From Acidobacteriota bacterium (GTDB lineage Bacteria; Acidobacteriota; UBA4820; DSQY01): a stretch of DNA of 64,000 nt. Under the pieces are notes generated by a model that did not search any database, had not been told where the DNA came from, and saw only the letters and a program-made list of their open reading frames with translations. Location of the stretch: NCBI GenBank assembly GCA_049968315.1, contig JBMFRA010000006.1:647-64646 (forward strand), written 5' to 3'. The position numbers and the translations under genes are program-made. Below, in pieces: positions 56,443 to 57,099 of this stretch (its first letter is position 1; each line of letters begins with the position of its first letter).

Positions 56443-57099
56443 ATGCGGAACTTCGTGAAGATCCTGGTACTCTCCACCCTGGTCCTGGCCCTGCCCACGG
56501 CCCTTCTGGCGGCGGGCGGCGGCCTCCACGTCGGAGCGAGCCCCCAGCAGAGCACCAGCACCCTCACCGTCACCATCCCCGGCGTCGTGGGGATCGACAT
56601 CGAGACCGACGTCAAGTGGGACTTCAGCCTCTACCCCGCCCCCAGCCCCACCTCCTGCACCGACGACACCTTCCCGCCCTCGCCGGCCTGCATCGACATC
56701 CATTACTACCCCAACGCCGAATCCACCACCGGCGGGCACCCCGGGCCCAACCCCTCCGACAACGCCATCTACATGAGCCTCTTCTGCAACAAGGCCACCG
56801 GAACCATTGACATCCAGGCCTCGGTGGGTTCCTGGGACCACGACTCCCCCGGCTTCGACACCACCGCCGTCCAGATCCAGCGGGATTCCAGCAACAACGC
56901 CCAAAGTGTGGGCCCCACCGCCTGGACCAACCTCACGTCGAGCCTCCAGAACATCGGGGCCGGCAACCTCAACACCCTGGGCCGCTTCCCCTGGACCCGG
57001 GCCGACCAGCTCTTCCGCATCTACCTGCCCTCCGCCGACATCACCTTCAACGAGGGTACCTACACCACCACGGCCACCTTCCAGATCAGCAAGACCTGA
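56443..57099 (+). CDS. Secreted 218-aa protein, member A of a paralogous pair; candidate fibre/pilin-like subunit
   Basis: Signal peptide MRNFVKILVLSTLVLALPTALLAAGG. The mature part has TLTVTIPGVVGIDIETDVKWDFSLYP...FPPSPAC...LFCNKATGTIDIQASVGSW and ends EGTYTTTATFQISKT. AAAGGAGA lies 7 nt upstream of the ATG. Confidence 0.75.
   Translation: MRNFVKILVLSTLVLALPTALLAAGGGLHVGASPQQSTSTLTVTIPGVVGIDIETDVKWDFSLYPAPSPTSCTDDTFPPSPACIDIHYYPNAESTTGGHPGPNPSDNAIYMSLFCNKATGTIDIQASVGSWDHDSPGFDTTAVQIQRDSSNNAQSVGPTAWTNLTSSLQNIGAGNLNTLGRFPWTRADQLFRIYLPSADITFNEGTYTTTATFQISKT

Follow-up and report, generated by a model that had tools for sequence, protein, structure and literature searches.

A window of 64,000 nucleotides (nt) from an Acidobacteriota genome (contig JBMFRA010000006.1, positions 647 to 64,646) contains near its end a seven-gene operon that probably encodes a strongly diverged chaperone-usher-like system, in which a surface fibre with major and minor subunits would be assembled by donor-strand exchange. 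Its candidate components are two secreted subunits (A and A'), a periplasmic PapD-like protein (C1), a secreted protein with two apparent beta-rich halves (C2) and an outer-membrane protein (OMP), which are encoded together with a beta-helix protein (BH) and an Ig-repeat protein. The putative pathway is, as far as it has been sampled, confined to Acidobacteriota, where it is found in Thermoanaerobaculia-like metagenome-assembled genomes (MAGs). An earlier note on the A and A' genes, made from the letters of the window, left out the neighbours on which the case rests: OMP, C1 and C2.

Predicted folds of A and C1

An AlphaFold model of A was built from a 20-sequence alignment and contains eight strands (predicted local distance difference test, pLDDT, 81; predicted template modelling score, pTM, 0.73). 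In the DSSP assignment, residues 29-48 have no regular secondary structure and are followed by a strand at residues 49-53. Of the 50 best Foldseek matches of this model in the PDB, 43 are donor-strand fibre subunits (pilins or adhesins of chaperone-usher systems, TasA or AbpA), all of them weak (E 1e-3 to 1e-1, template modelling (TM) score 0.3-0.5): CfaB, CS17, CS20, CupE, FimA, FimF, FimG, FimI, PapA, PapE, PapH, Caf1, Csu, TasA and the archaeal bundling pilin AbpA are represented. The top match is CfaB (4y2l; E 1.1e-3, prob 0.99), and the best TMt, 0.50, is to chaperone-bound CfaB (4y2o_B). Landmarks of the A sequence are a signal peptide at residues 1-~25, a WTRADQ motif at residues 184-189 and the F-strand-like C-terminal GTYTTTATFQISKT. 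Residues 41-56 (TVTIPGVVGIDIETD) are the candidate donor strand and A strand and form the most conserved block of the family, in agreement with the conserved strand after the signal peptide that had been proposed earlier.

Sequence comparisons with hhalign were made against FimA, FimC and FimD and against profiles of seven ushers, seven chaperones and nine pilins, and the reference operons fetched were Fim, Caf1, Agg3, Mrk, Pef, Fae and a chaperone-usher operon of Pantoea. The C-terminal block of A, xxGtYTxTxTfxis, aligns on the C-terminal strand of Fim pilins and Caf1 in a non-significant alignment. G205 of A lies 14 residues from the C-terminus, presumably as in Pap and Fim pilins, which is a lead only.

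C1 is predicted to bring a two-domain PapD-like chaperone fold to the cluster. Its model (pLDDT 84.3) consists of two beta-sandwich domains, domain 1 at residues 25-155 and domain 2 at residues 163-266, followed by a conserved Pro-rich tail. A loop of low confidence at residues 129-145 leads into a conserved strand of alternating hydrophobic residues, RVAIPVIVTA (146-155), with which domain 1 ends. Foldseek matches C1 to WxLIP (9i1y, E 4e-10), CfaA (4ncd, E 1.6e-9, TMt 0.57), CsuC (E 1e-7), and FimC, Caf1M and CupB2 (E ~1e-6), and each of the top TMt values (0.51-0.57) is to a chaperone of a chaperone-usher system. In hhalign, a colinear but non-significant alignment pairs C1 domain 1 with FimC residues 46-171, and in it 'P.DA.GSYWAL..LEV.PP...PRVAIPVIVT' of C1 falls on 'LPQDRESLFWMNV..KAIPS...LQLAIISRIKLYYRP' of FimC, a segment that we take to be the F1 strand, the loop and the G1 strand. 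Chaperones of chaperone-usher systems donate a strand of domain 1 to complete the sandwich of their partner (PMC12996565), and WxLIP donates a domain 1 strand, from a flexible loop, to the same effect (PMC10599100).

The tail of C1 carries the motif G-R-L-A-P-x-A-P (residues 276-283, window 57982-58005), in which L278, P280 and P283 are invariant among orthologues. PapD-like chaperones are not known to have this motif.

The outer-membrane protein

OMP is identical over its full length to P0074 (100% identity and coverage), with which its start agrees and which bears the NCBI/PGAP name 'MSCRAMM family protein'. The name is probably misleading for a beta-rich, signal-peptide-bearing protein of 869 amino acids (aa) in a diderm; it appears to have come from the C-terminal CarboxypepD_reg/SdrD_B-like domains. 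The orthologues are 865-922 aa long. OMP itself consists of an N-terminal domain (residues ~30-230), an amphipathic-beta region (~250-652) that terminates in GGLF with an invariant F652, and two C-terminal CarboxypepD_reg-like beta-sandwich domains. A crude scan finds ~25 amphipathic beta segments at residues 254-649. Pfam detects CarboxypepD_reg in all seven orthologues, otherwise only SdrD_B-type C-terminal domains, and gives no TonB-dependent receptor, Plug or porin signal. In the loci compared, OMP occurs in constant linkage with A, C1 and C2. This obligate linkage, together with the size, the signal peptide, the amphipathic segments, the GGLF and the C-terminal domains, points indirectly to an usher-like character.

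Operon layout and conserved core

The seven genes lie on the forward strand in the order OMP-A-C1-C2-BH-Ig-A', with A second and A' last (Table 1). The C1/C2, C2/BH and BH/Ig junctions are 4-nt overlaps of start and stop codons, as in translational coupling. All seven products begin with signal peptides, so that the cluster encodes exclusively Sec-exported proteins, as do the clusters of chaperone-usher systems, and no ATPase, cytoplasmic or inner-membrane gene lies within the conserved block.

Six other loci, which belong to different lineages, retain the order OMP-A-C1-C2-BH-x-A' and have either a single A gene or two in tandem. A distant locus, L019 (1-6661), is permuted and reads A-like (234 aa), C1 (280), C2 (242), OMP (870) and A'-like (196), and in L018 (1-2038) C2-like, A-like (190) and C1-like (266) genes are adjacent. 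As the linkage persists in permuted loci, we regard A, C1, C2 and OMP as the conserved core and count the beta-helix and Ig genes as accessories.

Table 1. Features of the operon and its surroundings, in window coordinates
Feature	Position	Strand	Description
Formimidoyltransferase-cyclodeaminase-like open reading frame	49297-51411		Upstream of the operon
SpoU-type methylase	51518-52303		Upstream of the operon
Coiled-coil lipoprotein-like gene	52367-53512		381 aa, upstream of the operon
OMP	53808..56417	+	869 aa, signal peptide, outer-membrane protein, candidate usher-like translocon
A	56443..57099	+	218 aa, secreted subunit, candidate major pilin; AGGAG 8 nt 5' of the ATG
Hairpin	57111..57134	+	GC-rich perfect 10-bp hairpin, GGCCGGGCGG-TTCA-CCGCCCGGCC, in the 57-nt A/C1 spacer, no T-run
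C1	57157..58044	+	295 aa, periplasmic two-domain PapD-like protein, candidate chaperone
C2	58041..58898	+	285 aa, secreted, two apparent beta-rich halves, core module member
BH	58895..61405	+	836 aa, secreted, right-handed beta-helix in the C-terminal third, candidate adhesin or glycan-active enzyme
Ig-repeat secreted protein	61402..63222	+	606 aa, Pfam Ig_7 (1.5e-6)
A'	63369..64000 (window end)	+	Distal A paralogue, candidate minor subunit; residues 1-210 of 222 in the window

Relationship of A and A'

The earlier note had described A and A' as paralogous secreted proteins, and this is borne out. Both have N-terminal signal peptides; BLASTP with compositional adjustment aligns them at 62 bits (E 1e-16, 30% identity over 179 columns), and the Smith-Waterman score of their mature parts is 166, compared with 32.6±5.4 (maximum 66) in 1000 shuffles. 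The shared motifs that it listed are all there (L/V-TV-T/S-IPGVV, D/E-V-x-W/F-D, FPPxPxC, L/V-F-C/S-N and GT-I/L-D-I/L-QASV), and a C-terminal EGT-Y/F-TT... strand is also common to both. The spacing of these motifs, given as identical, is so only from IPGVV to W/F-D; beyond that, a 5-residue gap precedes FPP and the alignment has 19 gap positions overall. The Gly/Pro-rich stretches of the two proteins, presented as divergent counterparts, turn out to sit at non-equivalent positions: GGHPGPNPSD of A aligns with LEARGLAVRPGESP of A', and GPGDGPGFSTT of A' lies opposite the conserved DHDSPGFDTT of A. The window ends within A', whose full length of 222 aa is found in P0027 (identical across the 210 residues in the window); its C-terminal end is ...AFQEGTFTTVVTFTAARA, and its C-terminus, which reads ...EGTFTTVVTFTAARA, has the same kind of C-terminal strand as A.

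The window has a GC content of ~70%, and the region holds many long overlapping antisense open reading frames, a point in favour of the view that the resemblance of A and A' is due to chance or that the frames themselves are spurious. This view is extremely improbable and is in effect refuted by the BLASTP E of 1e-16, a shuffle z of ~25, the ribosome-binding sites and the conserved synteny of the orthologues. Judged from sequence, the two genes are real rather than artefacts of high-GC reading frames, because orthologues at 27-90% identity occur in at least seven independent loci.

On a neighbour-joining tree of the A and A' sequences, the proximal A clade separates from the distal A' clade. 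Sequences from opposite clades are 27-37% identical, compared with 61-63% for the members of the two closest distal pairs. From this and from the fixed positions in the operon, the A/A' split is judged to be old and tied to operon position. The proximal A clade has a near-invariant A-A-G-G-G right after the signal-peptide core (A residues 24-29, window 56512-56529) and a G-x-S-P-Q-S that precedes the conserved strand; the GGG is missing from the A' clade. Two tandem proximal A copies, 55-64% identical, are present in L001 (9257-10696), L003 (4438-5881), L004 (5551-7033) and L011 (5109-6456), and a single copy is present in the window and in L002.

Proposed assembly pathway

The predicted folds of A and C1, the linkage of the genes and the export signals are the observed basis from which we infer every step of the following pathway. 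All seven products would be exported by Sec. In the periplasm, C1 would cap unfinished subunits by inserting a strand, for which RVAIPVIVTA is the candidate. OMP, whose N-terminal domain, large putative barrel and two C-terminal beta-sandwiches follow one another in an usher-like order, would act as assembly platform and pore. There, the N-terminal extension of an incoming A subunit would displace C1 and complete the preceding subunit beside the C-terminal GTYTTTATFQISK strand of the latter. The extension would be LTVTIPGVVGIDIE, with the alternating residues L41-V43-I45-G47-V49-I51-I53, and the exchange would be powered by folding energy, which would explain why the module has no ATPase or inner-membrane component. 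In the fibre, A would act as major subunit and A' as a distinct minor subunit (adaptor or terminator). C2, as a two-domain member of the core, would probably serve at the tip or as an adaptor or initiator; the beta-helix and Ig proteins may be lineage-variable accessories.

The proposal of major and minor donor-strand fibre subunits, which the earlier note had made for A and A', is in part upheld and is the best-supported reading on computational evidence: the fold matches, the PapD-like neighbour, the two clades and the conservation of the strand after the signal peptide speak for it, and the weak fold scores of A count on the other side.

Several further results weigh against a chaperone-usher-like pathway. 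No component passes any sequence test for a chaperone-usher family, and hhalign probabilities are at most 5% against FimA, FimC and FimD and against the usher, chaperone and pilin profiles: A reaches 5% against the nine-member Fim-type pilin profile over 16 columns only, C1 reaches 0.3% against the seven-member chaperone profile, and OMP reaches at most 2.6% against FimD and the seven-member usher profile. Usher, PapC_N and PapC_C are absent from seven OMP orthologues at E<=10, and the OMP barrel is read from the crude amphipathicity scan only. C1 lies outside the PapD_N and PapD_C sequence families; PapD_N, the Pfam family matched by the largest number of C1 orthologues, is matched weakly and below threshold by three of 11 (E 0.13-10, best 0.13). 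The fold scores of A are marginal (E >=1e-3, TM 0.3-0.5), and C1 also resembles generic tandem beta-sandwiches, such as ASH/MSP domains, a transglutaminase C-terminus and arrestin-like folds. The gene order with OMP first and the large beta-helix partner are likewise atypical of chaperone-usher operons.

Alternative explanations

The best structural match of C1 would fit a non-polymerising surface complex of the WxL/WxLIP type, in which strand insertion by C1 stabilises or anchors monomeric A and A'. WxLIP (DUF916-DUF3324, Firmicutes) completes the beta-sandwich of a non-polymeric partner in this way (PMC10599100). The likeness to C1 is one of fold only, however: WxLIP is a Gram-positive, monoderm protein that is bound to peptidoglycan and anchored in the membrane by a C-terminal transmembrane helix, whereas the tail of C1 is hydrophilic and Pro-rich; its partners are WxL domains, which are not pilin-like; and C1 shows no sequence similarity to it and no match to the DUF916, DUF3324 or WxL Pfam models. 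A complex of this type would also leave the strictly linked OMP of 870 aa unexplained, and it seems unlikely when the fold matches of A are fibre subunits and C1 has TMt values of 0.51-0.57 to chaperone-usher chaperones and of 0.41-0.45 to WxLIP. A fibre without a chaperone, such as the matrix fibres of TasA (Bacillus) and AbpA or the cannulae, in which A would self-assemble extracellularly and OMP and C1 would serve in export or anchoring, is quite unlikely. It has in its favour that TasA (8aur, E 2.8e-3) and the archaeal bundling pilin (7ueg, E 1.7e-2) are among the fold matches of A, that A (~190 aa when mature) exceeds the size of classical pilins and lies nearer to the ~190-230 aa of these subunits, and that the acidic D52/E54/D56 face of A recalls calcium-assisted donor-strand fibres (PMC12518558). 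Unlike A, TasA and AbpA have no PapD-like partner or outer-membrane pore, both of which are obligately linked to A; the Peptidase_M73/TasA Pfam model has no match in the A family, and a diderm cell requires an outer-membrane route for the subunit.

The operon could also be read as a module for the capture, degradation or export of glycans, with OMP as a porin, BH as a polysaccharide enzyme and A, A' and C2 as binding proteins. The Pfam signals of BH (Beta_helix, NosD, DUF1565 and, in L004, Pel9A-like) agree with this, as do a few carbohydrate-binding module and glycosidase beta-sandwiches among the weak fold matches of A (ranks 24, 30, 38 and 40). CarboxypepD_reg domains, moreover, occur also in SusC-type transporters. 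Such a module is very unlikely, since OMP gives none of the Pfam signals of a TonB-dependent receptor, Plug or porin, the module contains no glycosyltransferase, ABC or inner-membrane component, and A has no lipobox and is dominated by pilin matches (43/50). In L019, furthermore, OMP is directly followed by the A'-like gene, so that part of the core survives without BH.

Two further pilin classes were considered and set aside for A. Type V (Bacteroidota) pilins were rejected by reasoning only, as A has no lipobox and nothing suggests a C-terminal donor strand; type IV pilins were rejected as the hydrophobic segment of A is a cleavable signal peptide and not a mature N-terminal helix.

Comparison with known fibre systems

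CFA/I (alpha, class 5) consists of the chaperone CfaA, the major pilin CfaB, the usher CfaC and the tip CfaE, and it provides both the best PDB fold match of A (CfaB) and the best chaperone-usher match of C1 (CfaA). Like the chaperone-usher-like operon proposed here, it is small, encodes exported proteins only and has one major and one minor or tip subunit. By comparison, A exceeds its counterpart by ~40 residues and C1 by ~70, C1 has the Pro-rich tail, OMP lacks an usher signature, and two large extra genes (beta-helix and Ig) are present. Neither Pfam nor hhalign, the latter with profiles of the non-alpha systems Fim, Caf1, Agg3, Mrk, Pef and Fae only, revealed a relationship in sequence. 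Alpha systems occur mainly in beta- and gamma-proteobacteria, a host range from which the phylum here differs, and among chaperone-usher groups only the archaic (sigma) one has been described from many different phyla (PMC12996565).

The sigma systems Csu and CupE, whose pilins have SCPU domains, are represented among the fold matches of A and C1 by CsuC, CsuA/B and CupE, and the several paralogous pilins and the two-domain tip CsuE of Csu may be compared with A, A' and C2. They differ in gene order and accessory genes, however, and in sequence families: the operon gives no PapD or Usher Pfam matches, and SCPU is absent from 20/20 members of the A family. The resemblance of A to SCPU-type subunits suggested by the earlier note accordingly finds no support in Pfam, with 0 hits in A, A' and 18 relatives at E<=10. 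Fim, Pap and Caf1 share the fold class predicted for A and C1, and the N-terminal strand of A, with its alternating hydrophobic residues and central Gly, is like theirs; hhalign stays at 5% or below, and there are differences in size, gene order and phylum.

Chaperone-usher pili are well known and archaic ones extend across many phyla, so the operon would be a variant rather than a new principle. What is new, at the level of sequence, is that it fails the definitions of all known clades, has an unrecognised OMP and has a dedicated C2. It is conceivable, though doubtful, that A/A', C1, C2 and the 870-aa OMP form an independent lineage of donor-strand fibres, a seventh type outside alpha, beta, gamma, kappa, pi and sigma, with a translocon unrelated to ushers, a dedicated C2 and often a displayed beta-helix enzyme or adhesin. 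If OMP proves unrelated to ushers, the operon would represent a separate lineage of donor-strand machinery.

Donor-strand fibres are a major ATP-free route to surface appendages, and the machinery of diderms is classified by usher sequences, mostly from Proteobacteria. With the operon, the donor-strand principle would reach Acidobacteriota, in components that no sequence model recognises, and there would be a test case for the possible extent of divergence in the triad of chaperone, pilin and pore or for its independent origin. Searchable families for the annotation of environmental genomes, in which C1 and C2 are currently unnamed, would be a further gain.

Distribution of the A family

Relatives of A number 18 among 5.8 billion protein clusters; none of them has a name, and most come from Acidobacteriota MAGs. 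Searching 1.84 billion cluster representatives with a profile gave 50 members, likewise all unnamed, of which 37 score below 1e-10, and a motif-seeded scan picked out three of 185,579 species genomes, all Acidobacteriota or Thermoanaerobaculia MAGs. The practical impact is therefore modest, because the family is extremely rare. No match to Pfam (20 members, E<=10), NCBIfam or the PDB (phmmer and profile) was obtained, and 10 distant members searched against Pfam at E<=1 gave no bridge to any known pilin family and no SCPU. Literature searches on acidobacterial chaperone-usher pili and new donor-strand classes gave no paper that describes the A family.

C2 and the accessory genes

C2 has no Pfam hit, and its hhalign comparisons with A and C1 matched the signal peptides only. 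In the orthologues of L001, L003 and L004, each half of C2 ends with a G-x-Y-x-G and a block of alternating hydrophobic residues. The Beta_helix match of BH has an E of 3.4e-13, and the position of its gene is conserved in six loci; L019, a short contig, lacks the gene at the equivalent position. The product of the sixth gene is conserved over its first ~190 residues (BLASTP ~24-190) and variable thereafter, with lengths of 302-601 aa elsewhere. Its Ig_7 repeat region belongs to the lineage of the window and L002 only; a further Pfam search of the variable sixth gene gave no hit, and relatives of the gene carry a weak InhA-like MAM signal. Sequence and profile searches of the PDB with C1, OMP, BH and the Ig protein returned noise only.

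Flanking genes and RNA features

The housekeeping genes upstream of the operon (49297-53562) are syntenic with L002 and are considered to lie outside the module because they are absent from L001 and L003. A terminator-like hairpin at 53540-53562 lies 5' of the seven-gene block. No sigma-70 promoter was found in a scan of 53400-64000, and the 64-kb window has no tRNA genes and no Rfam families at the gathering threshold. At the other end, an AT-richer spacer of 146 nt precedes A', which is equipped with an AGGAGG ribosome-binding site of its own. The earlier note had raised the prospect of further paralogues 3' of A', and the closest syntenic genome has none, with a convergent alaS there instead.

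The hairpin in the A/C1 spacer lies in a region (57095-57160) with a folding dG of -47.3 kcal/mol and a z of -3.6. L002 has a comparable inverted repeat and L003 a weak one; L001 and L004 have none. The hairpin is possibly an intra-operon attenuator or mRNA stabiliser that sets the ratio of pilin to machinery, and could in this way raise the expression of A relative to the downstream genes.

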